NCBI GenBank assembly: GCA_040768845.1
Contig: JAXGME010000004.1
Coordinates: forward strand, 106,771 to 170,770
Reading direction: 5' to 3'
DNA: 64,000 nt
From: Christensenellales bacterium
Lineage (GTDB): Bacteria; Bacillota; Clostridia; Christensenellales; Aristaeellaceae
Made by a program: the position numbers and the translations under genes. The notes beneath the pieces were generated by a model that saw only the letters and a list, made by a program, of their open reading frames with translations, was not told the origin of the DNA and ran no database searches. Positions within the stretch are counted from its first letter, which is position 1; every line of letters starts with the position of its first letter. Shown piece by piece: positions 8,820-36,269 of the stretch.

Positions 8820-8887
8820 AACAACGCATTTTTTGATAAAAGACCGCCTTCCGCTGGCGGAACCGGCTTGATTTGGAGGAGAGTATT

Positions 8888-9028
8888 ATGCGTCTTCACG
8901 GCTTATCCGGACGCAGGGCAAGGAGAAAGCGCCTGTGGAAGAAGAACCTTGTTCTGATTTCCTTGGTGTTTGCGCTGATCCTCAGCACGATGGCGGTCAT
9001 CGCGGAGACGAGCGCCGTGGCATCTGCA
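8888..9028 (+). other. Sec signal peptide or signal-anchor of the giant protein
   Basis: MRLHGLSGRRARRKRLWKK (basic n-region), NLVLISLVFALILSTMAVIA (h-region), ETSAVASA|SS (AxA-type cleavage candidate after residue 45 or 47). Confidence 0.7.
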
Positions 9029-12000
9029 TCCTCCTTGGAGGCGTTCGAGGCTCCGCCATCTTTGGATGGTGGGGCCTCGCCTGCGCTTTTGGCGGATTCC
9101 GGGGCCCTCGTGACGCTTGATTCCGGATCGGGCGCGTCCGAACCGACCGCCGCGCCGGAGGCCGAACAGGAACCCGAGCCGGCCGCCGCGCCGGAGGCCG
9201 AACAGCAGCCCGAGCCGACCGCCGCGCCGGAGGCTGAACAGGAGCCCGAACCGACCGCCGCGCCGGAGGCTGAACAGCAGCCCGAACCGACCGCCGCGCC
9301 GGAGGCTGAACAGCAGCCCGAAGCCGAGCCCGAGCCGACCGCCGCGCCGGAGGCTGAACAGCAGCCCGAACCGACCGCCGCGCCGGAGGCCGAACAGGAG
9401 CCCAAACCGACCGCCGCGCCGGAGGCTGAACAGCCGCCCGAGCCGACCGCCACGCCGGAGGCTGAACAGCAGCCCGAACCGACCGCCGCCCCGGGCATTG
9501 AGGCCCAGGCGTACGTCGCCATTCCGGAAGCCGGTCAGAGCAGCGAACCGCAGGGGATGGTGCTGGCGGCGGAGCCTCTCGGCGCCATTGCGGCCAAGGG
9601 CGGCGTTGACACGGCCGGGGCGAAGGACACGGTGGAAGCCTACGCCATCCCGGCGGGCAGCGCCTACATTCGCGAGGCGGCCGGCCTGCTGACCTACAAA
9701 AACGACGCCACCGCCAACGCCATCCAGAACGCGCTTCAGGATGCGCTGACCACGGCGCGGGATGCCGTCAACAAGACCGCGACCATCGTCGTCACCGACG
9801 GCACCTACAACGGCGGCGTCAACCTGGACGCCTCCGCGGGTTCGTCGCTGTCCGAACTGCTGCTGTCGATTTTCGGCAGCGCGGACGCGGCCAAGGGCGT
9901 CAAGCTGCAGATTGTCGCGGAGGACGCGCTGAACGAAGCGGGAGAAGCCACCGCCAATTCCGCGGGCGGCGCGCAGGTGGACGGCTCCGTCACCATCAGC
10001 GGCCTGGACGTGGTGCTGGCGGGTCTGTACTTCTCCACCCGGGCGATGGTTTCCGTCAGCGACGCGGACAGCTTCTCCTACTACGGCACCCGGCTGTCGG
10101 ACGATGTGGACATCTCGGTTTCGCGCGTCAAGAAAAACATCAAGGTAGACCTGGGCGAGGGCGACGACAAAGCCTCCGTGCGGATCAAGCAGGCGCCCAC
10201 CGTGTCCGCCAGTATGACCGTCACCCCCGAGATGGGGCAGGACGCCACGGCCATTTTTGAGGCGCTGACCTCGTTCAAGGCCTCCGAAATCAGTCAGCTG
10301 GGCGCCAGCCTGGCCGACGCGGTGCGGTCCTTCCTGGCCACGCTCAATGGTTCCATTTCCGGCATGGTCGTATCCGACAGCCTGACCGTCGACATCGACG
10401 GCGGCGCTGGCGAGGATGAGATCGCCGTCAAGCACATCAATTCCACCGACCTGACCATGGCAAGCGGCGACGCCGGCTCCACCTACGGTTTTGCCATCGA
10501 CCTTTCCAAGGTCGATACCTCCATCCGCGGCGGCGCGGGCAGCGACGTTCTCGGCGCCACCGGCGGCATGGAACTGACCTACGGCCGCAAGGTGGTTTCC
10601 GCGCTGATGGAGTACGTGGCCGAGGAATTCGACATCGCGGGCAGCAACCTCCGGTTCTTTGGCGGCGACGGCGACGACGTGATCACCGTGGATACCACCG
10701 CCGCCTTCCCCTCCTTTCGCGGCGTGACCGTGGACGTGGCCGGCGGTGCCGGGTTTGACCGGCTGCACCTGACCGGTAAGCTGAACGACAGGATTGACGC
10801 GGCCAGCCGCATCACCGGAAACACCTCCGAACTGACCATCGAGGCGCTGGCGGAAATCACCTTCCTGGGGGATTTGATTGACGGCATTCGCATTCCCTTC
10901 ACCAAGCGGATGGTGGTAAACAGCACCGGCGTGGACGCGTTCACCGACGCGCTCAAAAACAAGAATACCGTCGCCCTCTCCGCCCTGGCGCCGGGTGCCG
11001 CGGCCCAGTCCTTTACCGACTATGTGCTGGACGCCTCCGGCCCGGTGGACTACACCGCAAACCTCGCCATTCCCGGCGGCGGGCTGATGCTGGCAAACAT
11101 CGTGGCCGACGGCGGCGAAAGCCTGACGGTGACGAGGCTCGTCGCGCCGGACTTCAACCTCCTGCTCTCCGGCGGTGAGATCACCGTCGGCGGCGAAGTC
11201 AGGGGCAAGAACATCCTGATCAATTCCGTCGTGACCGATATCGCCGAAGCGGCGATTGAGCAGACCATCATCGAGGACGACCTGAACGAGGAAAACACCG
11301 TCGACATCGAAGTGGGCTTTTACAAGGCGAACGGCGCCGCGAAGATCACCGTCGCCCCGTCCGCAAACCTCGTGGCCACCCAGGCCATCGACATGCTCGC
11401 CAGCCTGACGCTGGACAAGCCCTACCTGCCCACCGGCGACATCTTCAACCCCTTTACCCTCAAACTGGGCGAGGTCAATATTGACATTCGGGGCGCGCTG
11501 GCCGCGGGCGGTTCCATCCGCGCAGACGCGCTGTATTCTTCCACCGTGTCGGCCACCAACGGCCTGCTCAAAGTGGTCATCCCCTTCGGCGTGGCGGCGA
11601 TCACCGGCGACACCCGGATCACCGTCGGCGGCGGCGCGCGCCTGAACGCGGGCGCGGGCGTACTGCTTCGCGCGGCTTCCGATACTTCCGCGGAGGCCGA
11701 GGCCACCATGGGCGCGCTCAAGTTCACGCTGGCGCTGGCGGTCGTTCAGGCGGAAACCCACGTGAAGGTGGGGGACACCGCCGCCATCGCCGCGGGCGGG
11801 GCCGTGAAGCTCTCGGCCATGAACGCCGTGCGCGCCGAGGCCGCCGCGCTGGGCAAGAAGCCCAGCATGCTGGCCCTCAAGCCTGCCTCGGGCGGGTATA
11901 TCGCGGGGAGCTTCGTGTTTCAGGACACCAGCGCCACCATCGCGGACCACGCATCGGTTTCCTCCGGCGCGGCGCTCTCGGTCCGGTCCGAATCGAGGCT

Positions 12001-15000
12001 GAATACCGCCACCACCACCGTCTCGATTCCGGCCAGCCAGTCCGACGGAAGCGGCGGGGAATCGTTCCTGCCCACGGACCAGATCCGGCTGATGAGCATC
12101 GTGCCCTTCGTGGAGACGAAGCTGTTAAAGGTAGAAAAGGCCCCGAACCAGACGGCCTTTGGCAAGCTTCTGTCGGGTGTTACCGGCAGCAACTCGCTGG
12201 GCAACAAGTTTACCGACGCCACCAAGACGGCTTCCTCCTCGGGCACGCCGTCCAGCACAAAGCAGGTGGTAGGCGCGCTGGCGCTGGCCTACGCGGGCAA
12301 TACCAACAGCGCCCTGATCGATACCACCGGCAGTGTGACGGCCGCGGGCGCGCTTGACGTGACCGCGCTGGCCGCCACCGTCAACCAGGTGCGCGCCGAC
12401 GGCTCGCTGTACAAAACGCCCATGGCGCAGGCCGAGGACGCCAAGAACTCGGTGGGCGCGGGCGTGGCCATCGCCGTCACAAACCACGACAACAGCGCCA
12501 GGATCATCGCCGGTTCGATTGCCGCGCGCGGCCTTTCCGTGTCCGCCGTTACCGGCCGGATCGTCTCCTCCTCCATCGCAAAGGCCGGCCACATCCCCAA
12601 GACCTCCAGCTTTGGCCTGGGCGGCGCGGTCAGCGTGCACGTCGTCATCGGCCGCAACGAGGCGCTGGTGGGCAGCGGCGCCGCCTACAACCTGACGGGC
12701 GGCGCGGTGAACGTCGTCTCCACCGGAAACGGCGCCTTTACCACCGTGGGCGACGCATCGGGAAAGCGCGTCACCCCCAGCCTGAGCTTCGGCGGCATTA
12801 CCATTCCGCTCAAGCCCACCACCGGCAGCGAAAAGGACAGCGTGGGCATCGGCGCGGGCATCGCGGTCAGCGTGACCGGCGCGGACTTTATCGCCAAGGT
12901 GGAGGACGGCGTGCGCTTTGGCACTGCCGTTCTGGACGGCGTAAATGTCAAAGCCTCCTTCTCCGGCACCGAGACAATCCACGCCGCCGCGGGCGCGGCG
13001 GGCGGCACGTCCATCGTGCCGGTGCTGGCGCTGGCCGTTTCCGGCGTGTATTCCCAGGCCTACCTGGGGACGCAGTCCGGCGCGCTTTCCGCCACGGGCG
13101 ATGTCGCGATCTCCGCGGCAAACAGCATGAAGCGCAGCGTCGCCGCCGACGCGGCCGCCGCGGGCAGCGGCGTGGGCGTGGGCGCGTCCTTCGGCATCGC
13201 CGTCATCAACGACAGCGCGGAGGCCACGCTGAAGCGCAGCGTCACCGCCGCCAATGTCCTCGTGGACGCCAAGTCCGTCAGCCGCCTGACGATGACCATC
13301 AAGGCCAGCGCGGTGGGCGCCATGCCGCCCACCAGCACCTCTACCGGGGATGCCGCGTCCGGCAAGACCCAGGAAGACTATGACAAGATGAAGGACGACG
13401 GCTGGCCGCTGGATGACAACGGCGACGACATGCGTTCGCTGTTTAATGAAGGCGAAGCCGATCAGATGGCGGACAAGAACACCCAGGCCGCAGCGGACCT
13501 CGCCGCCGGCGCCAACACCAACAACGTCAACGCCGGTTCGGTGAACCAGCTCTCCCAGGACCGGCCCAGGGCCGAGACCAACGAGGGCAGCATTCAGGTG
13601 GCCGCCTCGCTGGCGCTGAACATCCTGTCCAACAAATCCCTGGCCACCGTGGGCGGCGGCATCGCCGTCACCGCGACGGACAAGGTGCGCGTGCGCGCCG
13701 TCAACGATACGGACGCCACCATCTCCGCCAACGCCAGCGCGACCAAATCCACCACCGGCGTGGGCGTGGCGGTGGCCATCAACTACGTGCGCTACCAGAA
13801 CAAGGCGAAGATCGGCGCGTCCACCCTCCGCGCAAAGTCGCTCCTCGTGGAAGCGGACATCGTGGAGGCGGACAATAAAAAGACCGTTGAGGAGATCCTG
13901 ACCAAGCTGCTCACCTACTTCGCCACCACCGAGGGCACGGAATTCCTGATGGATGCGCTGCTGGCGGTGGAGGGGCAGGCCAGCCTGGATGCGCTGCTCG
14001 CCGCCAACGGCCTCTACGGCGCGGATTACGCGGCGCTGACCGCGACTGAGAAGGAATCCCTCCGGAAGCTCATCATCCAGCAGTTGACCGAACAGCTGAC
14101 GAGCGGTCAGCGGGGTGATGCCGCGGGGGCGCTGCTCTCCGGGCTGATCGAGTCCACCGTCAAGGACTTCTTCGATACGCTGACCGACCCCGACTTTATC
14201 CTGAATATGGTGCTGGGCGCGCCCGACGCCTCCATCGGCAACCTGTTCAGCCAACTGGCGCTCAAGGGCAAGGTGGCGGCGGCCGCCATCCAGGAGGCCA
14301 TCGTGCTGTCGCTGGCCCAGAAGTTCGGCAATCCCGGCGAGTTGGACGGCATCGGTTGCCTGATCTCCACCTCCGCCATCTCCGGCGTCGGCGCGGCCAA
14401 CGTGGGCGTGGCGGGCTCGGCCGCCATCGCGGTGGTGGACGGGGAGACCGAAGCCCTGATCGAATCCAGAACCGGGTATGTGGACGGCGACATTGCGGTG
14501 ACCGAGGACGCGGCGATCCGCGCGCGCGCCGCGCAGAAGGTGTATACCACCGCCACCGCCTCCGCCGACAAAAACGGCAAGCCCGTCAAAAACAAGGACG
14601 ACAGTTCCGGTACCTCCGTGGGCGTGGGCGCGTCGGCGGCGATCTCCATCGTCGACGTGGATGCCATCGCCTCGCTGGGCAGCTATCGCAGGCTTTCGGC
14701 CGGGACCCTCGCCATCCTCTCCGAGGCGCAAAACGACATTGACTCCGTCACCATCGCGGGCGCCGACCCCATCGCCCGCAGGGAAGCGGTAAAGGTCACC
14801 CCCCCGGGCATCGGCCAGGAGGTCTCCCAGCCCGCCGCCAACAACACCACCACCAAGGACATTTCGGTGGACGCCGCGGTGGCGCTGGCGGTCATCACCA
14901 ACAACGTGCTGGCCCAGGTGCTGGAGCACGCGTCCGTCACCACCACCGGGCACGACACCGTCAAGACCGGCGTGGTCGACGGCGCGGGCGTGGAGGAAAT

Positions 15001-30000: not shown

Positions 30001-33000
30001 CGCCTTCGCGCCCATAATCACAATCCTCGGGTACGACGCAAGTACGGGCGCGATGCAGCAGGTGATGCTTGAGAGCCTGACGGGCGACGACGTCGGCAGC
30101 GTCGCCGTGGATGTGGAGGGCCGCTACTATCTGAAGACCGACGGCGGCTGGACGCTGATCGACGCCAGCAGGATTACCACCACCACACAGCACAGGACGG
30201 GGCTCATCATCAACGAGGAGCCGGAGGAAAAAGCGGACTGCGACGTGACCACCGTGACGATTGAGGGCATCCTGACCATTGAAACCACGGTGATTGCCGA
30301 AGGCACCGCGCGGGATGGCGAGATTGTGGACATCGTGTACACGCTGACGGGCAGGGACGGGACGATCGTCAGCATGCGCGGCCGCGTCGTGTTCCCCAAC
30401 GGCGCCACCGGCGCGCAGACTTCCGTCAAGCTGGCCGCGACGGAGTATCTGCTGGGCAACATCTCCGGCAGCAACGTGACCCTCGAAATGTCCGATTCCC
30501 AGGGCTCTATCCTGGACGGCAGGGCGGACGAAACCGCGCCCAACGTCAGCGCAACGGGCAACTTTGCGCTGGTCAGCGCATCTTCCGGGTCCATCGGCGC
30601 TGCGGCCAGGCCTCTGGCCATCGTCGTGGACGGCTATGTGATGTTCCGCGACCTCAGCGCCCACCGGCGGCTTGCCACGGATGCCTTCCTCAGGGCCGTG
30701 GACGGCAACCTCGCCTTTGAACCCGGAACGCGCGTCGAGGGTGCGACACTGGAGGCCGAGGCGGCGAATGGAAGCATTCTGTTTACCGACTTTGCCGCGG
30801 TCGCTTCCGCAGGCAAAGCGGCCAAGGTAACGCTGCGCGCGAGGGATAACATTACCGGAAGCCAGCGGCTGGATGTCGTGGACAGCAACGTCACCCTGAC
30901 GGCTGAAGGCGATATTACCGTGCCGGTGGTTACCGGTGCACAGGGCGCGTCCATTCAAATGGACGCGGACGGGAATGTCCGGATCGTCGCCGACGACGGA
31001 CTCAGCGTGGATCTCAACGCCAGCGCGATGGCCGTCGTCGCCGGTGGGTCCATCACGCTGGGCAATCTGCGTCTGGGCAGGGCCGCGCAGGGCGCGTCCG
31101 CCGGTTCCACCCTCAACCTGACGGCAGTGGATTTCATCCGTGCGGGGGACGCCAATCTGGACGGGAGCAAGCTTATCGCCGCCACCAATGACGGTGGCAT
31201 CACCATGGGCGCGCTGACGGGCACGTACGGCTCGGAGATCCGTCTGACGACGCATACGTACAGCGTCCTTGGCGCCGACATCCAGACCGACAGCGTGACG
31301 CTCGACGGCAGCCGGATCGTCTTTGATGCCTACAATGACATTTATATGGGCAATCTCTCCGCGGTCAACGCGTCCAACGCCCAGATCATCGCGTCGGGCA
31401 GCATAACGGCGGGCAGCGCATGGCTCAGCGCCAGTACGCTGAACGCGCTGGCGGAGAACGGCAGCATCAACATGGGCGCCGGCACGGCGCAGGAGCGCTC
31501 ATTGGTGACGCTGGACGCGGACGGCAGCATCCTGACCGGGAACGTGGAACTGTCCGAGACAAGCCGGATAGAGGCCACCGCCCAGACCGGAACCATCACC
31601 CTTGGAACCCTGACTGCCCGGCAGGCATCCAGTGCCTCGCTGGAAGCGGAGGGCGATATCCGCGCGGGCGACGTGACGCTGGCGGGGAGCACGCTGGACG
31701 CGCTGTCCCACAGCGGCGGCATCGCAACGCAGAACATCTTTGCGGAGGGTCATTCCGTTCTCGACTTTGACGCGGGCCGTGACATTCGCTTCCCGAACAT
31801 CACCGCCATGGACAGCGATATCCTCATGGACGCCGGAGGAGAGATTGCCTTCGTCCTGGCGGACTTTGTCCGCAGTTCCGTGGACATGACCACCCATGAC
31901 GACCTGGATTCGTCCACCGCCGGAGACATCACCTTTGACATCGTCGAGGGGATTGACACCGAGCTTCGCATGATCGCGGACGGCGGCGGCATCTACACCC
32001 TCAACGACTGGAGTTATCTGTACCTGCGCGGCGGATATTTCGTCACCCTTTCCGCGAGGGACGATATCGGCACCCTGGCGCGGCGGCTGATCGTAGACAT
32101 TCCCGCTGAGATGGGCCTTCGGGTGCTGGTGGTTGACAACTTCCACATCGACGCCCTGGATCTCGCCGGCGAGATCAAGTTCCTGCGCCGGCGGCCCGCC
32201 AAGGATGTGCGCGGCGGGCGCGATGAGCACGGCGTCAACCGTCTGGGCGACTGGCTCACGGGGGGCGGCATGCAGACGCTGTACCCGGCGCTGGCGGCGC
32301 AGGCACCGGATGCGCTGGCGGCCTGGCTCGCCGCGCGGAATGGCCGCGAGGTATGGTCCGCCCTCATCACCGACCAGGCCCTCAGCGCGCTGATCGCGCA
32401 GCGCGAGATTGCCAAGAGCGATCTCAAGGCGTTGCTGGTGGGCGGCGGCTTCAACACCAAGGCGTTCAACGCCGCGTATGCCGCAGGGCAGTACGATCTG
32501 CTGGCCGGGAAACTCCGGGATGCGCTGAATGTGGCGCCGCCCGCGGCGTCCGCCAAGGCCTCGGTCAGGTACGTGGACGACGCCCGCGCCCTGGACTGGC
32601 TGGCCGCCGCGATCGACGCGGGGCTTGTGGAAAACCTGGGTGAAGCGATCCACGGCAGCATGACCGCGGAAGACCTCATGGCGATTCTCGACGAGGCCTG
32701 GCGGAACGCGGACTATCAGGGCCGCATGGACACCGCGCCGGCAGACGGGCCTGCCCGCGCCTTTGTGATGACCATCGGCGAATCCTTTGGCGAGGGCCGC
32801 GTCTGGAACGCGGGGGACATTCTGATCCTGCAGCTTTCGGGCGATCTCACCGCCGCGGACATTCATTCCGACACCGGTGATGTGACGCTCGCAACGCCGG
32901 GCGGAAGCATCCTGGGTGCGGCTTCGGGCGTCGCCAACGTGCGCGGCCGCTACATCAACCTCTCCGCGGCCGGGTCCATCGGCGGCGCATCGCAGGCGCT

Positions 33001-35887
33001 CACCACCGAGCAGCAGATGAACCGCCCGGTGCTCGTCGGCAACATTGTGAACCCGCCGCTCGACGGGGCCGGGAACCCGGTGATAAATCCCGACGGCGGC
33101 TATGACTTCCTGCTGGTGGCTCGGCCGGTTCTGAACGTGGCGGGCCTGCCGGCGCTGGACGACAGGCTCAGGCCCATCCTCGAGTGGACGGTCTGCGTTC
33201 AGATCGGCTACGATTGGCTGCGGGTGGAATATCCGGGCGAGGCGACCCGACTGGACGCCGTATCCGGTGCGGACATCTTCATTCATGAGTTGACGGGCGA
33301 CATGGGCGTGGGCAGTCTGACGGCGGCGGGCGACGTAGGCCTGAGCGCCGCGGGCAGCATTCTGGATGTGCGCGCCGCAGGCGAGGCCATGCTCAACATC
33401 GCGGCGGGCGGTGACGTCCGCCTGAGCGCCGCCTCCGGCACCATCGGCACCCGCGAAAATTACCTGGACATTGATGTGGACGGCGTCGTGACAGCGGATG
33501 CCTCCGGCGACATCAGCATTGCCCATGCGGCGGACATGATCCTCGTCGCGGACAGCAGAAACGGGCAGGTCAACGCCGACGCGGCGGGCGATCTGGATCT
33601 TTCCAACACCGCGGGCGACCTCGTAATCGGCCCGATCTATGCCGGGGCGGATATCACGATCACCGCGCAGGGCAGCATCCTGCCGGGCGACAGGCTGGGC
33701 CGCGACGCGCAGGTGAAGGGCCGCAGCATTGCGCTAAGCGCGCTGGGCGGCACCGCGGGCACCGCGGCCGCGCCGCTGGATGTGGACACTGACGCACCGG
33801 GCGGCGGCACGCTTTCGATCTTCGCGGCCTCCACCGTGTTTGTGCGGGAATTGACCGGAGATCTGCGGCTTGAAAGGCTTGTATCCGGCGGAGATGCGAC
33901 GCTCATCATTCCCGACAACCTGATTGACGCCGCAAATCCGCTGTGGAACGACGCGGCGGCGATGTACCTTGCGTCCTTTGAGGCCTTTGACCGGTTCACG
34001 GCCCTGTCCACCATCGCTGAGGTGCTTCGCGGCTACGCCGACCGGCTGTGGGAGAAGCTGGATGCCGCCAGCGAAAAAGTGAACGCCCTGGGCAGCGCGC
34101 TGGCGGACCTGATGGCGAGGATTTCGGACCTCGAACGCCAGATTGCCGATATGGATGGAGATCCGTCCAGGGCCGCGCGCCTGAAAAAGCTGAAGGCAAA
34201 ACAATCTGCGCTGGCAGCCCAGGCCGCGTCGCTGACCGAGCGGCTGAACGAGGCGCTGCAGCGGCAGGCGGCAGCCCAGGCCGCCTTTGACCAGGCGGAC
34301 CGGCAGACCGACATCGCGGAGGGCGAAGCCGCCGCGCAGCACGGCGTCGTCACGGACAGCGTGGCGGAAATGGTGCGGCGCATCCGCGGCGCCATCGGCC
34401 GCGACACCGTGGAGGTTGCCGGAAACCTGCTGCTCCGCGCGGGCGGCAGCATCGGCGAGGCCGACCACGCGCTGTCCATGCTGGTGAGCGGCACGGTGAC
34501 GGTCGATCAGGGCGACAACCCGTCGGACGGTCTGTACATCGCCAGCGGCGGGCCCATCACGTTCTCGGGCATCAACGCCTACGGCAATGTGGGCATCATC
34601 GCGCTGGGGGACATCCGCTTTGCACCCGGACGGGGGCTGAGCGCGGAGGTCGCCTCCCTCCTGTCGCTGAACGGCGACGTGGGCAGCAAAAAGCGCCCGG
34701 TCCTCGTGAACGCGGGCGAGGTCTCCGCCGCCGGAAACAACGTGTACCTGCGCAGCGCCAGGAATCTGCGGGTGGATACCATCATCGCGGGCAATGAGGC
34801 GCGCATCCGGTCGGACGGCGGCGTTACCGGCGTCCTGCGCGACGCGGGCGACGACCGCACCCACTTCTCCGCCCCGATGCTGGATATCGAAGCGGGCGGC
34901 AACGTCGGTGCGGCCTCCAACCCGCTGCGGCTCAACGTGGACAGACTGAAGCTCCTTGCGGGCAATGTGACGCTGGCCAACATCTCCGGTGCGCTGGACA
35001 TCGTCCGGCTGCGCGGCAACCGCGTGAGGATTGACGCGCTGGGCGGCGTGCTGGGCGGGCCGATTTATGCCGACAGGCTCACCATCCGCGCCGGCGGCTC
35101 CGTGGCGACAAAGGACGATCCGCTGATCCTATGGGTGCCCGGCGATGTGCGCATCACGTCGGTGTTTGGCCGGGTGTATTACATCAACCGTTACCGGCCC
35201 GCCGTTAAGGACGCGGTTCGGGTGCTCTATCTGATGCGCTTCCCGGTGACCGTTTTTGCGGACGGTCAGCCCCGGACCCTTGCGCTGTACATTGCGGCCA
35301 CCCGCGGGGTGGACGGCTCCGTCACCATGCGCGGCGCTTGGCTGCTGGCGGAAGAGCGCGCTGCGGACTTTGCCGGGTTGATAAGGCAAATTGCCGCCCA
35401 GGGTGTGGCGAACCCGGCCTTCATCTTCGCGCAGCCGCTGCCCGGCCTTGCGCAGGCGCTCCGGAGTGCCTATCCGGGCGCTGTGGTTCAGGGCGGCGCG
35501 ACGATGTGGATTCTCGGCGCGCTGATCGGCGCGGATGCGCCGGATATCGAGGCGCTGCTTGAGGATCTCCAGCAGATTCTGACGGCGGATCGCGAAGCGC
35601 AGGCCGTGCGCCTGATCGAGGCGTTTTCCGCGCGGTGGGGCGAGAAGTATCCCGAAATCGCGGCCATGCTGTCGGAGGGCTGGACCGACCGCGCCGAGTT
35701 CTTCCGGATGCGTGCGGCCGACAGAAGGGCCGCCTGCGACCTTGCGGGCTTTGCGCCCTTCCTGATGGCGCTGCAAGCGGCGCTGGGTGCGGACGGCGGC
35801 TTTGAGAATGAGAACGCGCTGACGGATGCGCTGGCGCCTGTGCTTATTCAGGGCATCCAGGCTTCCGCGCTGGAGAAGGCGGCGTAG
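8888..35887 (+). CDS. giant (8,999-aa) secreted or surface repeat protein, beta-helix / filamentous-adhesin-like; function unknown
   Basis: One uninterrupted frame runs from TTG 8873 to TAG 35885-35887. The best start is ATG 8888, 6 nt after GGAGGAG (8875-8881). GC3-dominated codons occur in this frame only; every other frame breaks within 0.2-4.4 kb. The N-terminus is a basic stretch plus hydrophobic helix plus AVASA. The body is Ala/Gly/Val/Thr/Ser-rich periodic sequence. Confidence 0.9.
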   Translation: MRLHGLSGRRARRKRLWKKNLVLISLVFALILSTMAVIAETSAVASASSLEAFEAPPSLDGGASPALLADSGALVTLDSGSGASEPTAAPEAEQEPEPAAAPEAEQQPEPTAAPEAEQEPEPTAAPEAEQQPEPTAAPEAEQQPEAEPEPTAAPEAEQQPEPTAAPEAEQEPKPTAAPEAEQPPEPTATPEAEQQPEPTAAPGIEAQAYVAIPEAGQSSEPQGMVLAAEPLGAIAAKGGVDTAGAKDTVEAYAIPAGSAYIREAAGLLTYKNDATANAIQNALQDALTTARDAVNKTATIVVTDGTYNGGVNLDASAGSSLSELLLSIFGSADAAKGVKLQIVAEDALNEAGEATANSAGGAQVDGSVTISGLDVVLAGLYFSTRAMVSVSDADSFSYYGTRLSDDVDISVSRVKKNIKVDLGEGDDKASVRIKQAPTVSASMTVTPEMGQDATAIFEALTSFKASEISQLGASLADAVRSFLATLNGSISGMVVSDSLTVDIDGGAGEDEIAVKHINSTDLTMASGDAGSTYGFAIDLSKVDTSIRGGAGSDVLGATGGMELTYGRKVVSALMEYVAEEFDIAGSNLRFFGGDGDDVITVDTTAAFPSFRGVTVDVAGGAGFDRLHLTGKLNDRIDAASRITGNTSELTIEALAEITFLGDLIDGIRIPFTKRMVVNSTGVDAFTDALKNKNTVALSALAPGAAAQSFTDYVLDASGPVDYTANLAIPGGGLMLANIVADGGESLTVTRLVAPDFNLLLSGGEITVGGEVRGKNILINSVVTDIAEAAIEQTIIEDDLNEENTVDIEVGFYKANGAAKITVAPSANLVATQAIDMLASLTLDKPYLPTGDIFNPFTLKLGEVNIDIRGALAAGGSIRADALYSSTVSATNGLLKVVIPFGVAAITGDTRITVGGGARLNAGAGVLLRAASDTSAEAEATMGALKFTLALAVVQAETHVKVGDTAAIAAGGAVKLSAMNAVRAEAAALGKKPSMLALKPASGGYIAGSFVFQDTSATIADHASVSSGAALSVRSESRLNTATTTVSIPASQSDGSGGESFLPTDQIRLMSIVPFVETKLLKVEKAPNQTAFGKLLSGVTGSNSLGNKFTDATKTASSSGTPSSTKQVVGALALAYAGNTNSALIDTTGSVTAAGALDVTALAATVNQVRADGSLYKTPMAQAEDAKNSVGAGVAIAVTNHDNSARIIAGSIAARGLSVSAVTGRIVSSSIAKAGHIPKTSSFGLGGAVSVHVVIGRNEALVGSGAAYNLTGGAVNVVSTGNGAFTTVGDASGKRVTPSLSFGGITIPLKPTTGSEKDSVGIGAGIAVSVTGADFIAKVEDGVRFGTAVLDGVNVKASFSGTETIHAAAGAAGGTSIVPVLALAVSGVYSQAYLGTQSGALSATGDVAISAANSMKRSVAADAAAAGSGVGVGASFGIAVINDSAEATLKRSVTAANVLVDAKSVSRLTMTIKASAVGAMPPTSTSTGDAASGKTQEDYDKMKDDGWPLDDNGDDMRSLFNEGEADQMADKNTQAAADLAAGANTNNVNAGSVNQLSQDRPRAETNEGSIQVAASLALNILSNKSLATVGGGIAVTATDKVRVRAVNDTDATISANASATKSTTGVGVAVAINYVRYQNKAKIGASTLRAKSLLVEADIVEADNKKTVEEILTKLLTYFATTEGTEFLMDALLAVEGQASLDALLAANGLYGADYAALTATEKESLRKLIIQQLTEQLTSGQRGDAAGALLSGLIESTVKDFFDTLTDPDFILNMVLGAPDASIGNLFSQLALKGKVAAAAIQEAIVLSLAQKFGNPGELDGIGCLISTSAISGVGAANVGVAGSAAIAVVDGETEALIESRTGYVDGDIAVTEDAAIRARAAQKVYTTATASADKNGKPVKNKDDSSGTSVGVGASAAISIVDVDAIASLGSYRRLSAGTLAILSEAQNDIDSVTIAGADPIARREAVKVTPPGIGQEVSQPAANNTTTKDISVDAAVALAVITNNVLAQVLEHASVTTTGHDTVKTGVVDGAGVEEMVNFLLSAYQRGQTKASASGFAVAGDKAAVGAAIAVNIAMSDVRATFAGVGLVAGSAKITALTSNEDEANALATVVGASLDRYFDRLRTALRLGSVGSGGGSGKMNATIVNKINGFLPKAKELTANVPFSAKLFDLLGVKTPAAPSSSTASGAATGNAGGNANSQSLDDSAKKEQSINLAAALGVNVTNHCATAEMTGSLTAKNAEISAADRSNFRTTGSGATVTLPSQQNANNIALGIAVTVNRNKAHSTVGGSLTATGSGSNNGAIRVTSAATQNMDGAYRGLLGAQAVACAIAGSGGKVGLAGAVAVMVAGAESIARIAEGALVRGGAISILATDQSKLAVRAGSVSATGASAGVGASFALIYAESLTRATIGKNAQVYGGSLKLSAEKLRVDSTDYQFPLGISTLFTVDASADRSGIVNLKTSGGYALELNLGMDDVMKTLDMLNFLASVNYYVEAIAGSVVGSSDAKLALAGSVAMLFTNNETAAEVGDGAVIVLTDGSLDVDASSDTVARLIGGAVAATTGKSGVGVNIAALADEDMVRASIGAGAKLGASGDVTVDAAAASDTWAVTVAAGVSTGSGPSIGGSINMIVSGNTVWAGALGADGDTAGGEEITAGGDVRISADNVAKMTLISASLGAGSGVAAGGTAAVIVTNNDTRAALGAGAKLTAGRSAAISARSAETMLNILASLSGSTGKVAAAGTLGVMVSQSLTQASVGAQAQVTAADGGVQVTADGAVTQVVVMAAASGSTGGAAVGGTVNVGVFDHQVNALVGQGAKLQAQKLAQGNNVIVRASADNSTILITFAGAASSSSAAIAGAIPVVVVSDKVQVDVGSYVIIEAGDSIAIISRAESGLYNIAGSVAVSAGQAGAGATIATLVIGNSVNTRIGNRAKMIAHAVMEDAALPAGVQLPNRDARRRGVLVSATANSTLAMISGSGAASTGNAAVAGVVHTLVLKNSVKAVVGDHVVMVAGRESSTPGSTKTGDGEVIVESDDDSHIYNIAGAVSASSGAGVGASVVVMVYDKRMEASVGDGGTIIATDDVTVQSTSKDTVILLALSFAGGGNAGVAVSASALVFENDLFAALGGSVFSDGDVLVNADSETTMVNTAAAVAVSGTAAVTPVAIVTYFEGATNALFRVGADILAAGGVSLRAKSKEFITSDAAGVSASGTASVSGTVDVVLSKQKTTAVTGSGVVIDAAALNVNAADDYQLVGVVATIAGSGTAGVAITALVSVLHNTVSAILGGNNRITTRSGDVSVNASAKRDIGAYAGTVAAGQVGVGGTLMVVVAGGRMKQDAADQLSASFKPGEFMDGAFSSSHGAASGYEKDDVGAMLEGDGDQQSKTNVGSGGSFDGTGGYKDDSVSGDVSVAPGKNADNSKAQAPGADTSFGSNGDIDSAAAIGSAKPTYASQDATSAIIGAGTVVNSARDILVTSGDDLVADLIAGTITGGVYAAVGAGVAVAVLFSNVEAKVEDGATLHAGRDIKILATAGSTTVEDTDTQRTGALKDSFSAGSNNPMDLTRRTIRAISITGGGALVGVSVSLASVNVFSTVIATLKGDVTKSASLTVMASCDYPNVLAATLTASAGGAAVGASVAAAVFGATVESSVAGDAKISGTQAVNVASRLNTGAISGAGAFAAGGVAGNGAVALVVNISRVDTFIGRGATVSRSDALALSVNADVDTAARAYVLSVAVSGSVSIGLSAAVTVIKPEVLTYIGTTPTGHTAHSGAGAAGGSVNAWRVEVKNDVTSLAQSLIAAFSAGGVAVNGNVLLTFNFTDAVAALSGATVTADAVSINAYMDSTARSVVLAGTAGSAAIGVTVSYVHLRSSNIARIDGGMLEADAIGLYAGKLGRANTATAEATAVAGSIGAVAVGLNTAIADNHAQNIAEILNGNIAADTILEVYAVGTATATARVLGFSAGVVNVAGTYVLALLRSEQQARILGGSVTAGELFVKSYLNNAAGDSTLAQIVTGSGGLLSATVNMALAYGRASSVAVVAPAFMTIGGSAAIGSYGYQQVRTEILNLLDASAYGAAVMVGFAYAQGEFNARLAVTDGPAAVDINAASITVESIYTAAAVSRVTPSAGGVSLSVASAKANAAVALVSVSATAAIDGTGALSAGQVTVLTQGVASSLAEVLTPKYQVGVATVAVNAILSKLSARQKAYILGVSIINASSVTVRSELNKGKTTGASAKLHATGAGVSVGLLDVRANIAVALSDSESIAFVVGVPISGGALLIQSDASSIAEAKIDTASFGAAAVSLGLNALYAYANGDFRAYAVTAGAAMNPASLAVQVNHTATSEADTTQSPVSAAFSAVSAKTNLAVAVTGLVAEAAILGDALRLVADGILDQATLSAYGLNGVGGSVSAATVDVLVAGIAAATTTVAQAAMELNYASVGVNVLISRLTAVQNAVISGATISGGAVTVRSTLNAGGTGSARAMLSGSKVNISLYDGKANAVYALADAASIACIDQSAIDLTGALQVLSEGSSLAGAGVVQGSGLGLVAVGLTIVEADASGDFRADIQTAADKPVKAASIRVGANYTALAQAATTQAAGGVSGSLVSGDTNMATAKVTNRARAAVTGGGGVWVTGDMIVSAIGTAVALAVVEEPTASLSGISVVANVLSAVLASEQKAYIAGGQIKAGRVNVVSEYNKGAPSSASGGATAALRGTGSGVSLHFVNVGVNTAAAAVRAVSAAYISGADILAGTGAVTVTSDATSLASALVEQSSSAGYAAFGVTTVNAAADGTFLAYLAANGASVNAASLTIANHYRAKADAATAQSSGSVEHSVLSGRTNAATAKVGTWAEAQVYGAEQSGVIDGSLTIAGALTVTVTGIAAARAEVAQPTVSLAGISITANILDASLKSYQRARISGVGLRAGSVAVASNCNQGAENSADGGATAVLRGTGIGGAGAFKLTLVGAEVNTAIALADATSIAALEYANVLAGTGALSIRSNGTSLAWAGVEQASGVGLATFGVTIVKADANGSYAACLDASGADVNAASLTIENSYTAKANAETAQSTGGGVNASAVSGKTNVASASVGILAVAELRGVPGASAHAVSVVGAVNVKAAGVAQAVALVQAPFIALGGISVAANVVGASLAGTQRARILDVRLSAGSVTVLSEFNKGRTDGATATLTGPGASVTLVEVNINSATATAGNLVAAGVKGADINCGALTVMVDATSNAVASTMSGSSVGFAGLGVTVITALANGVFDAFIEDSAVGAGAGAVNVQVAHTSRADAKAAQPSGGTISLSGISIEGNKATATVGTKADARVTGGSITTTGALTVQIIGTATAHAQIQGERLSISVGSIAVNLVRADVAARLGARIDQTTIKAGTVSVTVSLNKKDRTTGAVARVGSAGSGGGSLSLFGGSASRGDALITAIVAAAVAGTAMDAAQLNVYADVNAYANADILSPSGSLSLYNASVVETAADAAGSYSATVDTTGQGGGQALSVGGLDIKVTYYATSTAATGPAGGVSASVVNSSMNKATAQTRLSAAAGLLGSGRLEVSGNANVQVIGRAKAVTEGRTYNLGISGVKIAVNWTSATLNVTQSANVKNTGTMTIGGTLKINSQFVRDEGYGGATATTGGAGGGSVSILGATTNVARAIVAVEIYAGITNDALAVPGLITAGAVDIDALASTLSTAAAKTGYGVSVVTIGNLDAVAISYSTVKAYIQNALVETANSTSVNATSVAGANASSEAPGGIGIASGTSAKARAFVGMPAPGNLSDDDRSGLDGLLGQKPQTVSAYASAASVTAGGDITIRAYNEGYAVSNVAKGTTVSGGSISRSSIPTFSEYYTHAQVLGGSALVAAGSISITAEDLTQADSVAKGQSIGLIVNSETMCGRNFQDVVTQVDIGASLLKAREALNVLATSRAVMDAQTVADGGGAFDGSSLYVHNTLYRNTRVSILDGAHLEADYGNLVIQATSGTRDSITTRATLSSGGVVALAKIRGYTTVSSGATVSVASGAQIVDTFNTVRIIADASMNKLSTELRATAAGLGVAPNVQSNTSVTIRPLVDIAGSADRRAGITGRYVELRGITSKLYIYDYCYASGKALGANVVAHVHQNTDIDVVVKVSFAVIRAYDGLTMITSSAPTGDSRNVYAHSSTSLKAIGESNSNVSMTYDNSTRTEVNTGVDVYSADVYISAVSPSANAGYDRSKSGFIVKYRGGSQSLKSSAASYINSGASFHLGDAAAGIVIDISTRNGVTLVRQVGLKNERQIWTITSDGVQFANISNNLPGRMRVLMFTGSTSPFFKVYNQEWIPGLTLVNRTDLDVSFKGLALRNTSFIAPTVSLTYLSSSFRHSGAQASANATPAVILESRAGGGIHLGGLIANPTGTVRILFTGENPGALTSIGAMSTSSGLTNVAPIWAHALTISGASSVGTASKPILAFLFGLGDEDPSVSAVATGDMHMELTPAELKMVASIPNSPDTTALKYRLRLVQALTDGVNAIRLGEGLRIYQKAGTSVVAMPQPGTLLYLVDALVGLSGNVELSNRDALNHYLDSYDPVSGVYSYQLPNGTMIYTDEEGSVLRIAEGGVDFMVSDFNFTLNESGAVTQISLAQGVRFDVERGLLSIEAGFNFKALLSAIKGSWIMNHLGTGTDQFTFLYGYQQGNDGIYTPLESTLTLWRTIGNRSYYFLTNDTITQDKIFSGDRGVYMLTYDATADVLAAYHISYENTLDGVGDEENLIHFKWDADDDDNARFDITWLNGYDKDSPPLYGLPEWCAELNGAELVKRDNPQTYVTHLRLPFFELSPDLYLVYRISDGVLSYLYDVEGNPSSMWKSAALSYYSVDSAGIYVIAAGTELKNGVRVNEDYFFTIDSGKFTEVVRAPYHYVDGDGTNWYGGGTYYLDSYAPTLTYAAAASISLSIGKAEGKDYFQIGFDGDEGGNVTFEGPVEDIPIKGTALPQNHVRNGSGYRITASMYIHEDGFAVMFATERVTDENAANYGEYIIPMVSGYARFAAMYDGVTYRSDKLTAVNLLNAAGAAAFAPIITILGYDASTGAMQQVMLESLTGDDVGSVAVDVEGRYYLKTDGGWTLIDASRITTTTQHRTGLIINEEPEEKADCDVTTVTIEGILTIETTVIAEGTARDGEIVDIVYTLTGRDGTIVSMRGRVVFPNGATGAQTSVKLAATEYLLGNISGSNVTLEMSDSQGSILDGRADETAPNVSATGNFALVSASSGSIGAAARPLAIVVDGYVMFRDLSAHRRLATDAFLRAVDGNLAFEPGTRVEGATLEAEAANGSILFTDFAAVASAGKAAKVTLRARDNITGSQRLDVVDSNVTLTAEGDITVPVVTGAQGASIQMDADGNVRIVADDGLSVDLNASAMAVVAGGSITLGNLRLGRAAQGASAGSTLNLTAVDFIRAGDANLDGSKLIAATNDGGITMGALTGTYGSEIRLTTHTYSVLGADIQTDSVTLDGSRIVFDAYNDIYMGNLSAVNASNAQIIASGSITAGSAWLSASTLNALAENGSINMGAGTAQERSLVTLDADGSILTGNVELSETSRIEATAQTGTITLGTLTARQASSASLEAEGDIRAGDVTLAGSTLDALSHSGGIATQNIFAEGHSVLDFDAGRDIRFPNITAMDSDILMDAGGEIAFVLADFVRSSVDMTTHDDLDSSTAGDITFDIVEGIDTELRMIADGGGIYTLNDWSYLYLRGGYFVTLSARDDIGTLARRLIVDIPAEMGLRVLVVDNFHIDALDLAGEIKFLRRRPAKDVRGGRDEHGVNRLGDWLTGGGMQTLYPALAAQAPDALAAWLAARNGREVWSALITDQALSALIAQREIAKSDLKALLVGGGFNTKAFNAAYAAGQYDLLAGKLRDALNVAPPAASAKASVRYVDDARALDWLAAAIDAGLVENLGEAIHGSMTAEDLMAILDEAWRNADYQGRMDTAPADGPARAFVMTIGESFGEGRVWNAGDILILQLSGDLTAADIHSDTGDVTLATPGGSILGAASGVANVRGRYINLSAAGSIGGASQALTTEQQMNRPVLVGNIVNPPLDGAGNPVINPDGGYDFLLVARPVLNVAGLPALDDRLRPILEWTVCVQIGYDWLRVEYPGEATRLDAVSGADIFIHELTGDMGVGSLTAAGDVGLSAAGSILDVRAAGEAMLNIAAGGDVRLSAASGTIGTRENYLDIDVDGVVTADASGDISIAHAADMILVADSRNGQVNADAAGDLDLSNTAGDLVIGPIYAGADITITAQGSILPGDRLGRDAQVKGRSIALSALGGTAGTAAAPLDVDTDAPGGGTLSIFAASTVFVRELTGDLRLERLVSGGDATLIIPDNLIDAANPLWNDAAAMYLASFEAFDRFTALSTIAEVLRGYADRLWEKLDAASEKVNALGSALADLMARISDLERQIADMDGDPSRAARLKKLKAKQSALAAQAASLTERLNEALQRQAAAQAAFDQADRQTDIAEGEAAAQHGVVTDSVAEMVRRIRGAIGRDTVEVAGNLLLRAGGSIGEADHALSMLVSGTVTVDQGDNPSDGLYIASGGPITFSGINAYGNVGIIALGDIRFAPGRGLSAEVASLLSLNGDVGSKKRPVLVNAGEVSAAGNNVYLRSARNLRVDTIIAGNEARIRSDGGVTGVLRDAGDDRTHFSAPMLDIEAGGNVGAASNPLRLNVDRLKLLAGNVTLANISGALDIVRLRGNRVRIDALGGVLGGPIYADRLTIRAGGSVATKDDPLILWVPGDVRITSVFGRVYYINRYRPAVKDAVRVLYLMRFPVTVFADGQPRTLALYIAATRGVDGSVTMRGAWLLAEERAADFAGLIRQIAAQGVANPAFIFAQPLPGLAQALRSAYPGAVVQGGATMWILGALIGADAPDIEALLEDLQQILTADREAQAVRLIEAFSARWGEKYPEIAAMLSEGWTDRAEFFRMRAADRRAACDLAGFAPFLMALQAALGADGGFENENALTDALAPVLIQGIQASALEKAA
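9140..9495 (+). repeat. in-frame 36-bp tandem repeat encoding (T/A)AAPEAEQ(Q/E)PEP, about 9 units plus a partial unit
   Basis: Near-identical 36-nt units (gccgcgccggaggc[ct]gaacag[cg]agcccga[ag]ccgacc) repeat directly. One unit carries an extra GAAGCCGAGCCC-type insertion. The encoded Pro/Glu/Ala-rich stretch looks like a spacer. Confidence 0.9.
10150..10775 (+). other. five dispersed GGxGxD-type (calcium-binding-like) motifs in the N-terminal region of the giant protein
   Basis: LGEGDDKA (~10151), DGGAGEDEI (~10397), RGGAGSDVL (~10526), FGGDGDDVI (~10658), AGGAGFDRL (~10740). They are separated by 27-82 aa and are not a contiguous RTX nonapeptide array. Confidence 0.5.
11560..20700 (+). repeat. 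divergent tandem array of a ~55-aa (~165-nt) Ala/Gly-rich repeat, probably beta-helix coils
   Basis: The anchor G-x-G-x-[SA]-x-A-x(5)-[ND]-x(3)-A-x-[IV]-G recurs, e.g. GVGVGASFGIAVINDSAEATL (~13170), TGVGVAVAINYVRYQNKAKIG (~13755), SAGVGASFALIYAESLTRATIG (~16065), GAGVGASVVVMVYDKRMEASVG (~18040). By eye I found 38 anchors between ~12.45 and ~20.6 kb, mostly 155-175 nt apart. Confidence 0.8.
20500..26050 (+). repeat. higher-order tandem array of at least 8 divergent ~230-aa (~690-nt) supermodules, each about four basic units
   Basis: Motif A (L...Q[KRQ]A[YR]I.G......V.V.S..N.G) occurs at ~20801, 21467, 22208, 22877, 23585, 24302, 24962 and 25649. Motif B (AS[LI].[VI]...[YH].A.A.A.T.Q..GG.S) occurs at ~21200, 21872, 22610, 23299, 24019, 24700 and 25389. 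Spacing is 660-741 nt. Confidence 0.8.
27650..30520 (+). other. non-repetitive, aromatic/Asp/Asn-rich, probably globular region of the giant protein
   Basis: The Ala/Gly periodicity is lost. The sequence is rich in Y/W/F/D/N (e.g. HFKWDADDDDNARFDITWLNGYDKDSPPLYGLPEWCAEL, YHYVDGDGTNWYGGGTYYLDSY). GC is visibly lower: about 47% in a 60-nt sample at 29101-29160. Confidence 0.7.
30520..35180 (+). repeat. second repeat class, FhaB/filamentous-haemagglutinin-like (G[DS]I..[AL]...G.I), interrupted by helical segments
   Basis: Examples: GDVTLATPGGSILGAASG, GDVGLSAAGSILDVRAAGEAMLNIAAGGDVRLSAASGTIG, ADITITAQGSILPGD, GRSIALSALGGTAGTAAAPLDVD, EAGGNVGAASNPLRLNVDRLKLLAGNVTL. The period is irregular, about 20-40 aa. 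Confidence 0.6.
33935..34345 (+). other. predicted coiled-coil segment near the C-terminus of the giant protein
   Basis: An Ala/Leu/Gln/Glu/Lys/Arg-rich, heptad-like stretch: LWEKLDAASEKVNALGSALADLMARISDLERQIADM...RLKKLKAKQSALAAQAASLTERLNEALQRQAAAQAAFDQADRQ. Confidence 0.6.
35180..35884 (+). mobile_element. IS256/Mutator-type transposase core-like segment (5'-truncated, DDE residues apparently lost) fused in frame to the 3' end of the giant gene
   Basis: It is collinear with IS256/IS1081 transposases as I remember them: YLM..V.V..DG...L.IA..GVDG....G.W...E.A.....L...A.QGV......+....GL.QALRSAYPGA..Q.....+....DLQ.I......EA..L+..F...WG.KYPEI...L..GW.....FF........GGF.N.NAL.D.L. Compare ...LDxFxxKWxxKYPxI...W...FFxFP...FPNxxAL.... 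The catalytic D/D/E positions read R, Q/P and A/F. Confidence 0.45.
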
Positions 35888-35906
35888 CTTTTTCGGGGGC
35901 AATTGC

Positions 35907-35943
35907 GCGGGGCGCGGCCGGGCGAAAGCCCGCCGCGCCCCGC
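35907..35943 (+). terminator. GC-rich stem-loop with a GAAA tetraloop downstream of the giant gene (possible terminator)
   Basis: GCGGGGCGCGGCCGGGC-GAAA-GCCCGCCGCGCCCCGC forms a 16-bp stem with a one-base bulge, starting 20 nt after the TAG. No clear U-tract follows. Confidence 0.45.
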
Positions 35944-36202
35944 CGTGCCCGGTGGGTGAATATTTGCATAAGGCCCGTAGTACGATGCTGGAAGCGGGGA
36001 GGGATGCACGCTGGAATACCAGGATTGAGCGGCCGCGGTTGAGACTGCCCGGACTTGCGGCATATCTATGGCAACGCCGCATAAGGGCGGACGGCGCAGA
36101 ATTTGGATTTATTAAAGCCGATCCGGGAAAAGCGCGGGTGGAATCCCGGAGAAGTCCTCGCCGCCCCTGCTGTCCAGCGGGTTTGGCAATCCTGCACGAT
36201 GG

Positions 36203-36236: not shown

Positions 36237-36269
36237 AGAGGGGCGCGGAGGGTGCTGGAAAACAGGGAA

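Follow-up and report, generated by a model that had tools for sequence, protein, structure and literature searches.

A 27-kb gene of a Christensenellales bacterium encodes a giant repeat protein ending in an inactivated IS256 transposase fragment

The leukotoxin LktA of Fusobacterium necrophorum, prototype of the repeat model LktA_tand_53 (NF012206), is a protein of about 3,200 amino acids (aa) made by a diderm host and exported by a TpsB-type partner encoded in the lktBAC operon. Other described systems with long repetitive shafts are the FhaB-type haemagglutinins of two-partner secretion (TPS) and the sortase-anchored or giant fibrillar adhesins of Gram-positive bacteria, such as Ebh/Embp. 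Here, we analysed a 64,000-nucleotide (nt) stretch of a Christensenellales genome (assembly GCA_040768845.1, contig JAXGME010000004.1, positions 106,771 to 170,770; hereafter the window), in which a single gene at 8888-35887 of the forward strand encodes a protein of 8,999 aa. From its sequence and from structure models, we consider it probable that this protein is a fibrillar surface protein exported by the general secretory (Sec) pathway, with its C-terminus next to the cell and with an exapted, dead transposase module in the place of a sortase signal.

Comparison with LktA showed that the window protein has the same ~53-aa repeat type and is likewise very large, acidic and secreted, whereas it is about three times longer, contains extra modules and belongs to a monoderm-type host, and no TPS domain or TpsB was detected in the scans. 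With FhaB and other TPS haemagglutinins it has in common a long, repetitive, strand-rich shaft (modelled with AlphaFold2 (AF2) at aa 7961-8345 and 8506-8772) and a presumed adhesive role, but it gave no match to Haemagg_act or Fil_haemagg_2 at E ≤ 0.1, no two-partner secretion apparatus was found, and there is no outer membrane to cross. Like the Ebh/Embp-type adhesins, it has a signal peptide, a long repetitive stalk and non-repeat modules, and several of its relatives end in C-terminal LPXTG or transmembrane (TM) signals; unlike them, its stalk is not of the Ig-like, FIVAR or GA type, no stalk domain is found by Pfam, and the window member lacks a sorting signal. In contrast to substrates of the repeats-in-toxin (RTX) and type I secretion system (T1SS) class, it carries only four isolated GGxGxDxUx nonapeptides, near the N-terminus, has no PF00353 match, and bears an N-terminal Sec signal instead.

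An earlier reading of the window, made from the letters alone and called here the sequence-only reading, had described proteins of this size as rare in bacteria. A survey of giant genes has, however, already noted proteins of 10,000-30,000 aa in gut Clostridia (bioRxiv 10.1101/2023.11.21.568195), so that size alone is not new. These giants belong to the same bacterial class and a similar size class and have a presumed role in adhesion; they are described as consisting of units such as RCC1, the Listeria-Bacteroides repeat, the YG-repeat, dockerin or the leucine-rich repeat, none of which was detected here. Giant adhesin-like proteins of Clostridia are a known class and the LktA repeat is already curated; the present family is unnamed. 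In our literature searches we came upon neither an account of this family nor a surface protein with a domesticated IS256 domain, nor a transposase-derived module replacing a sortase signal.

Reading frame, length and relatives of the giant gene

The giant gene (8888-35887; all features within it lie on the forward strand) is one uninterrupted frame of 8,999 codons that runs from an ATG to a TAG stop without internal stops, and an alternative TTG start at 8873 would extend the product to 9,004 aa. A ribosome-binding site, GGAGGAG, was read directly in the sequence at 8875-8881, 6 nt 5' of the ATG. The product has a mass of ~905 kDa and an isoelectric point (pI) of 4.7. The GC fractions of codon positions 1, 2 and 3 were 0.63, 0.51 and 0.86, evenly so over the whole 27 kb and in agreement with neighbouring genes, and the third-position value (GC3) of 0.86 was confined to this frame, the remaining five frames holding 13-398 stops. 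In these respects the sequence-only reading, which had noted a frame open for 27,000 nt, a good ribosome-binding site and start, and GC3-biased codon usage in that frame only, was borne out.

Selection was assessed with the Nei-Gojobori (NG86) ratio of nonsynonymous to synonymous substitution (dN/dS), which was 0.23-0.73 against three species in all eight regions tested. The internal repeats have diverged to at most 52% aa identity (self-BLAST), which makes wholesale repeat collapse unlikely; being old and diverged, they also show that the frame is not an assembler's concatenation of near-identical units. In addition, three independent assemblies of the same locus (L015, L046 and L047; L numbers denote homologous DNA loci in other assemblies, P numbers related proteins) matched the 3' 11-16 kb at 98-99.6% identity and shared the downstream order of a MerR gene followed by an aldo-keto reductase gene. 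Judged by coding signal and selection, the 27-kb frame is a real gene and not an artefact.

A GC-driven frame, a chimeric or collapsed assembly, or a decaying gene read through into an insertion sequence (IS) fragment would be suggested by the long spurious frames that do occur at 66% GC (antisense open reading frames (ORFs) over the gene reach 1,472 aa), by one 123-nt array that is evidently collapsed or deleted in the window, and by the fragmentation of homologues in public gene calls. We regard such an origin as extremely improbable, since the GC3 signal is restricted to one frame, dN/dS stays under 1 in all regions tested, the end-to-end collinear relatives are only 29-35% identical and include lower-GC genomes (L012, from a complete chromosome, has 55% GC), and the 3' part is reproduced by the three assemblies. 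The long antisense frames themselves (many of 1,000-1,470 aa at 8903-35000 on the reverse strand, one antisense frame having only 13 stops in 27 kb) are a side effect of the high GC3 of the coding frame and can mislead gene callers.

The exact length of the protein is less firm than its frame. A 123-nt (41-aa) unit with the sequence LEAEGDIRAGDVTLxGSxLxALSHSGGI... is present as a single copy at about 31634-31724 (aa ~7583-7612), a probable site of collapse, deletion or strain variation. In L015, an indel-rich assembly, the same unit forms an array of 7.7 copies with 88% matches (L015 8043-8997), and L046, which is 99.6% identical to the window without gaps, contains at least three copies at L046 1-192, where its contig ends inside the array; the L047 contig also stops within it. 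The 8,999-aa length thus probably represents a collapsed or deletion variant that is short by about six units (~250-270 aa), the difference being due either to copy-number variation between near-identical strains or to collapse in the window assembly. The period is divisible by three, so copy number does not shift the reading frame. The sequence-only reading had counted frameshifts, stops or collapsed repeats among the signs of a pseudogene or artefact; its figure of 8,999 aa survives as an open frame but probably as an underestimate of the length, with this one array probably collapsed or deleted.

The segment aa 6150-7200 was searched exhaustively with HMMER against 1.84 billion cluster representatives and retrieved 66 of them. 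Among these, three complete relatives (P0036, P0037 and P0040, with 7,984, 7,894 and 7,941 aa, respectively) matched the window protein collinearly, at 29-35% identity, between aa ~112-154 and aa ~8,789-8,820, which supplies the comparison of orthologues and their lengths that the sequence-only reading had proposed. A scan of GTDB species genomes yielded 11 loci, all in metagenome-assembled genomes (MAGs) of Clostridia, including Candidatus Pullichristensenella spp., 'Oscillospiraceae' and one complete Christensenellaceae chromosome. At all 11 loci the homologous frame was still open where the 10-kb flank ended, which gives a minimum of 4,500-5,500 aa (contigs of L003-L013 include OY762278.1 and CAYTPV010000003.1); L003-L010 were collinear with the window protein, and L011-L013 aligned over ~170-390 aa only. 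Family members have so far been found only in MAGs labelled Bacillota, Clostridia or 'bacterium', of Christensenellales or Oscillospiraceae type where classified. One MAG, Candidatus Pullichristensenella sp. AnMBR.bin484, contains two giant paralogues (L005 and L008).

The family is large and conserved, yet nearly invisible to domain libraries and routinely fragmented by gene callers. Two relatives of 4,663 and 4,837 aa had no Pfam match at all, and all named relatives are annotated 'hypothetical protein'. When the central module or the first 900 aa served as query in word-based searches, the only hits were P0009 and P0033, the latter being the same gene from a frameshift-ridden assembly. Such searches miss the family, and hardly any full-length members stand in protein databases, because gene callers fragment these genes. 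Public calls split them (L001 1-10000, L015 1-8949 and P0033) either into a 3' piece of 1,300-1,600 aa plus antisense and short ORFs or, in indel-rich assemblies, into many pieces.

The transposase-derived tail and the C-termini of the family

The C-terminal tail of the window protein (aa 8773-8999; 35204-35884) consists of the catalytic (RNase H-like) and insertion domains of an IS256/Mutator transposase. Pfam and NCBIfam were run on ten overlapping 1,000-aa tiles across the whole protein, and the sole Pfam domain match was a partial Transposase_mut in the last tile. The tail matched PF00872 with an E-value of 3e-14 and 53 bits against a cutoff of 21, over profile positions 170-331 of 379. 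Its similarity to the ISCth4 transposase (PDB 6xg8) had an E-value of 3.5e-7 as a single sequence and of 3.7e-19 with a profile from four species. In Foldseek, the AF2 model of the C-terminal region found 6xgx and 6xg8 as its best PDB matches (E 2e-8, ~220 columns), the C-terminal domain being of alpha/beta type. NCBIfam on the last 240 aa returned IS256 only, and NF033543 scored 42-45 bits against a cutoff of 150, below the level of a full-length transposase.

The tail is equivalent to residues ~170-400 of ISCth4. In ISCth4, residues 1-165 form the dimerisation, NDB and helix-turn-helix (HTH) domains, and the active site consists of D175, D241 and E348 together with a C262/H265 motif (PMC7780238). 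The boundaries of the tail coincide with the catalytic and insertion domains of ISCth4, and the dimerisation, NDB and HTH domains are absent. Compared with the intact IS256 enzyme (ISCth4 TnpA, 6xg8/6xgx), the tail keeps homology to the core in sequence and fold but forms the last part of a secreted protein. Alignment to an intact IS256-family transposase showed that D175 is replaced by M8783, D241 by Q8850 and E348 by A8956, and that CxxH has become GxxM. Across the window, L003, L004 and L005, the three catalytic positions read M/M/L/L, Q/Q/A/G and A/A/S/A, respectively. Over ~225 codons these four tails can be aligned with no frameshift; they are 37-68% identical, their dN/dS is 0.45-0.59, and no sign of IS ends was seen around the domain. 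The transposase-like tail of the sequence-only reading can accordingly be specified as IS256 catalytic and insertion domains with all catalytic residues replaced, in at least four species.

Tails of this kind (type A) were found only at the ends of giant fibre genes and, from the L005 species, on two short contigs that appear chimeric. The metagenome-wide scan with the tail profile retrieved additional copies belonging to the L005 species, these two contigs included, and otherwise genuine transposases of ~400 aa at 23-27% identity, those inspected having intact motifs. By these comparisons, the tail is a transposase fragment of ancient origin that has been inactivated and is kept by selection; it is not an enzyme, nor did it arrive by a recent IS insertion. 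It is a rare example among bacteria in which a transposase domain has been recruited to a non-enzymatic role within a secreted protein. The two short contigs (L016 and L018) have low coverage and carry unrelated sequence, for a membrane protein or a glutamate-synthase-like one, upstream of an L005-type tail; the assemblies are likely chimeric, and the junctions are not taken as new fusions. Separately, the C-termini of P0036 and P0037 resemble a diverged type A tail by eye (TLVMRF... at the start, GGFDSPKEL... near the end), and their comparison with it gave no Pfam match, an hhalign probability of 4.5% and no PDB match. If this homology were true, the transposase capture would predate the divergence to ~30-35% identity.

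To compare the ends of the family, the C-terminal 1,300 aa were aligned with those of the homologues. All share a cap motif, G.VYY.N.YR, after which the C-termini diverge. In three relatives the cap is followed by a sorting signal: VPHTGG, a TM segment and RRRYLARRN in L009; LPRTGG, a TM segment and KRKYH in P0008; and LPQTG, a TM segment and RRRQRS in P0043. In P0042, P0046 and P0064 it is followed by a hydrophobic TM segment and a basic tail. TIGR01167 scored above its curated cutoff in P0043, P0064 and P0046, whereas L009 and P0008 carry the motif by inspection. A type A tail of ~225 aa follows the cap in the window protein, L003, L004, L005/L002, P0003 and P0005; a type B module of ~330 aa in L006, L007, L008 and L010; and a type D module of ~200 aa in L011-L013, Pfam giving no match on the type B and type D tails. 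A short post-cap module running from RTLxDxxTGxxVxG...L.V... to ...DGxLxFxT..L is common to type B and D tails (L006, L007, L008, L010, L011-L013, P0039, P0040 and P0067); it may represent one more C-terminal domain that has so far gone unrecognised.

These signals indicate that the family includes classical, C-terminally attached surface proteins of Gram-positive type. Since the cap stands directly before the sorting signals of relatives, the C-terminus would be the cell-proximal end in the window protein as well. The window protein itself contains no LPxTG anywhere and no C-terminal hydrophobic segment (motif and hydrophobicity scans), and no SLH, choline-binding or other known anchor was found by Pfam and NCBIfam on the ten tiles or by the motif scan. 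The sequence-only reading was thus correct that it bears no LPxTG, SLH-like or choline-binding-like anchor; it had left anchoring as an open question, which is narrowed by the collinear homologues that end in sortase-type or TM signals at the position of the tail. Type A tails and LPXTG-anchored relatives within one family provide a clean comparative system for what can replace a sorting signal.

As a tentative suggestion, on the doubtful side, an IS256-family element may have landed in the 3' end of a giant sortase-anchored fibre gene, its DDE-transposase core then losing all active-site residues and being domesticated, and long retained, as an extracellular structural or attachment module that replaced covalent wall anchoring as the base (or the tip) of the fibre. 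If true, Gram-positive bacteria could have in such a domesticated DDE core a novel type of domain for non-covalent retention at the surface or for assembly.

The main rival, still live although we think it unlikely, is that the fibre is released or forms a matrix, for instance in cell-cell aggregation or as a biofilm scaffold, an old IS256 insertion having removed the LPXTG signal and left the tail as a folded end-cap only. This is compatible with the architecture, and it would fit a window protein without any known anchor, an acidic tail with no conserved partner nearby, and the non-anchor type B and D C-termini of several family members. The tail, however, is under purifying selection and has accumulated no indels over a dS of ~0.5-1.1, unlike a dispensable remnant, and the two paralogues of AnMBR.bin484 have different tails (type A in L005, type B in L008), which suggests distinct tail functions.

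With at least four alternative C-terminal modules after one conserved cap, the family also formally resembles polymorphic toxin systems such as CdiA, Rhs and those of Gram-positive bacteria, in which case the cassettes would be interchangeable and the RNase H-like tail a nuclease-type effector delivered by the fibre. This is very improbable: the DDE and CxxH residues are all replaced, so that by sequence the tail is catalytically dead; some of the alternative cassettes are plain sorting signals, that is, anchors and not toxins; and no conserved immunity-like gene lies downstream, the ORF that overlaps the stop codon appearing spurious.

Architecture and proposed organisation of the fibre

Hydrophobicity and motif scans of the whole 8,999-aa protein revealed one strong hydrophobic segment, at aa 19-45, and elsewhere only two weak stretches within the shaft. 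The protein begins with a Sec-type signal peptide (aa 1-47; 8888-9028) with a basic n-region and a 20-residue h-region, recognised by the hydrophobicity scan and by direct reading, and four consecutive AxA-type signal-peptidase sites (VIA/AVA/ASA type) follow the h-region; the signal peptide is probably removed after export. An acidic low-complexity linker rich in Pro, Glu, Ala and Gln (PEAEQ; aa 48-232; 9029-9583) was defined by composition, part of it being encoded by a 36-nt DNA tandem array at 9138-9494. The N-termini of P0009, P0036 and P0040 show the same type of signal peptide and linker, the start of P0037 looks truncated, and the linkers of relatives are analogous, being acidic, Pro-rich or Ser/Gly-rich (Ser/Gly-rich in P0037).

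Pro-rich linkers resemble the wall-spanning segments that lie beside anchors in Gram-positive surface proteins. The protein could accordingly be held by an uncleaved hydrophobic segment in the membrane, with the linker crossing the wall and the tail as distal tip, and the 20-residue h-region followed by a 185-aa Pro-rich linker, a layout conserved in relatives, agrees with this arrangement. It is improbable, given the four consecutive AxA-type sites after the h-region and the double tethering that it would impose on relatives with LPXTG or TM signals, if their N-termini have the same layout.

The N-terminal domain (aa 233-720; 9584-11047) is the presumed distal tip and is conserved in relatives: it is 35% identical to P0009 and lies inside the collinear alignments to P0036, P0037 and P0040. 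Within it, four isolated RTX-like GGxGxDxUx nonapeptides occur at aa 505-627 (10400-10768), ~25-45 residues apart, and the GxGxD-type motifs are conserved in P0009. They may be Ca2+-binding turns, placed in a Sec rather than a T1SS substrate. The tile covering aa 1-1000 gave no Pfam or NCBIfam match except low-complexity PARP.

The main shaft (aa 721-5750; 11048-26137) is composed of LktA_tand_53-type repeats of ~53-56 aa, as shown by NCBIfam, periodicity analysis and self-BLAST. NF012206 scored 93.4 bits against a curated cutoff of 50 in six stretches within aa 2701-3700 and remained below the cutoff in three further tiles (aa 901-1900, 1801-2800 and 5401-6400), on which basis the ~5,000-aa shaft is assigned to the LktA repeat type. 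By periodicity analysis, supermodules of ~225-240 aa organise it from aa ~3450 onward, and two short acidic or Gly/Ser-rich inserts interrupt it at aa 1481-1570 and 3341-3450. With this family, Clostridia of gut and anaerobic-digester samples, whose surface biology is essentially unexplored, gain a giant surface fibre with a repeat shaft.

A conserved central module (aa 6150-7130; 27335-30277) comprises a strand-rich part at aa ~6180-6520 and an aromatic-rich part at aa 6481-7130 with 12% F/W/Y. In the AF2 model of aa 6150-7200, confidence was high only at aa ~6180-6520 and poor beyond aa ~6730. The second shaft (aa 7131-7780; 30278-32227) is built of ~41-aa units, identified by self-BLAST and by the array comparison, and leads into an Ala/Leu-rich region (aa 7781-7960; 32228-32767), defined by composition, which is the best conserved against L003 (dN/dS 0.24) and of which only the last 11 residues fall inside the AF2 model of the C-terminal part.

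That model covers aa 7950-8999, was built with nine homologues and reached a mean predicted local distance difference test (pLDDT) score of 82.9. It contains a strand-rich repeat segment (aa 7961-8345; 32768-33922; pLDDT mostly above 90 for model residues 170-400) with an invariant YDWLR motif and a low-confidence insert, then two long helices of 71 and 77 residues with 3 residues between them (aa 8352-8502; 33941-34393; model helices 403-473 and 477-553), and then a terminal strand-rich segment with the cap motif (aa 8506-8772; 34403-35203), the cap being kept in all relatives. The two helices, which had weak Foldseek matches to SMC-arm and iSH2-like structures, are read from the model as an antiparallel hairpin. 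On their DSSP pattern, the strand-rich repeat segments are read as a beta-solenoid; a Foldseek search with these parts yielded nothing significant.

Most of the zones listed by the sequence-only reading were reproduced, namely the Sec-type N-terminus (now resting on the single strong hydrophobic segment and the AxA-type sites), the PEAEQ stalk, the GGxGxD region, the ~55-aa repeats, the ~230-aa supermodules, the aromatic region, the helices and the transposase-like tail, and its coiled coil corresponds to the two long helices. Its 'aromatic globular region' is indeed rich in aromatic residues; the model there has a pLDDT below 50. Its 'FhaB-like repeats' needed revision, the repeat type being LktA_tand_53, with no match to Fil_haemagg_2. 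Among the families for which it had proposed a tiled profile search, the LktA-type model was found, whereas Fil_haemagg_2, PF00353 and anchor models were not. The beta-helix it had proposed to look for by structure prediction may find a counterpart in the strand-rich repeat segments of the modelled part, subject to the lack of a Foldseek match for the repeats.

In the arrangement that we favour, an acidic fibre of ~0.9 MDa would be exported by Sec, the signal peptide then being cleaved. From N- to C-terminus, the mature chain would consist of the flexible acidic linker, the N-terminal domain with its Ca2+-type GGxGxD turns, the LktA_tand_53 shaft of ~5,000 aa, the aromatic-rich central module, the second repeat shaft interrupted by the helical hairpin, and the cap motif. 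The N-terminal domain and the central module would be the exposed and presumably ligand-binding parts. In the clade of the window protein, the sorting signal would have been replaced by the IS256 catalytic and insertion domains with loss of the three N-terminal transposase domains, and the tail, at the base of the fibre, would serve in non-covalent retention or as a cap and not as an enzyme.

Several observations speak against this arrangement. Most family members have no covalent anchor (type A, B or D tails), and the cleavage of the signal peptide was judged by eye. No ligand-binding fold was identified; the central module was modelled with a pLDDT of 58 (below 50 in the aromatic-rich part), and its model found no fold match in the PDB with Foldseek. 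The dN/dS of the tail (0.45-0.59) is among the higher values within the gene, and with its acidic character (pI 4.7) the tail is not expected simply to bind DNA or anionic polymers of the wall. No conserved downstream partner or synteny was found among the homologous loci, the genes differing between type A loci. The central module and the N-terminal domain, though conserved, matched no family in Pfam or NCBIfam. The tail, the central module and the N-terminal domain are concrete constructs for binding and localisation work.

Export and neighbouring genes

The host belongs to a monoderm-type lineage of Clostridia. No TpsB, T1SS or sortase gene was found among 40 window ORFs scanned with Pfam, although a TpsB gene could lie outside the window; the sole POTRA signal stayed below threshold and falls within a protein that has seven PG_binding_1 domains. 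Haemagg_act, the TPS domain, was not detected on the giant protein with Pfam or NCBIfam. Export therefore presents no paradox, since the host is monoderm, a Sec signal is sufficient and no TPS apparatus was found. The sequence-only reading, which had pointed to a contradiction between haemagglutinin-like chemistry and monoderm-looking surroundings, was right about the surroundings, whereas the contradiction falls away.

The flanking genes are those of ordinary Clostridia metabolism and regulation. Upstream lie sugar ABC transporter components, a GH29 fucosidase, a GH106 rhamnosidase and a TPR protein, for which an exact look-up gave no match. Downstream follow MerR, an aldo-keto reductase, a TIM-barrel protein, an unassigned protein of ~650-710 aa, the protein with seven PG_binding_1 domains, CorA, two-component systems and SecDF. 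The unassigned protein is encoded at 39093-41225 (654 aa as called in L046 and L047) and is followed by the seven-PG_binding_1 protein at 41228-43486. In L001 (the contig of L004), too, a gene for a PG_binding_1/YkuD protein is situated 1.7 kb downstream of a type A homologue, but such a gene is absent at other type A loci, and the association is probably a coincidence.

Pattern scans for promoters and terminators at the giant gene were uninformative. A GC-rich inverted repeat at 35900-35960 (+), which the terminator scan did not score, was noted by reading the sequence and is a possible terminator. Two ORFs overlap the 3' end of the gene, an Arg-rich one at 35826-36710 (+) that covers the stop codon and looks spurious, and another at 35129-36379 (-). 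The real neighbours on this side are MerR (36270-36668, -) and, divergent from it, the aldo-keto reductase (36793-37644, +).

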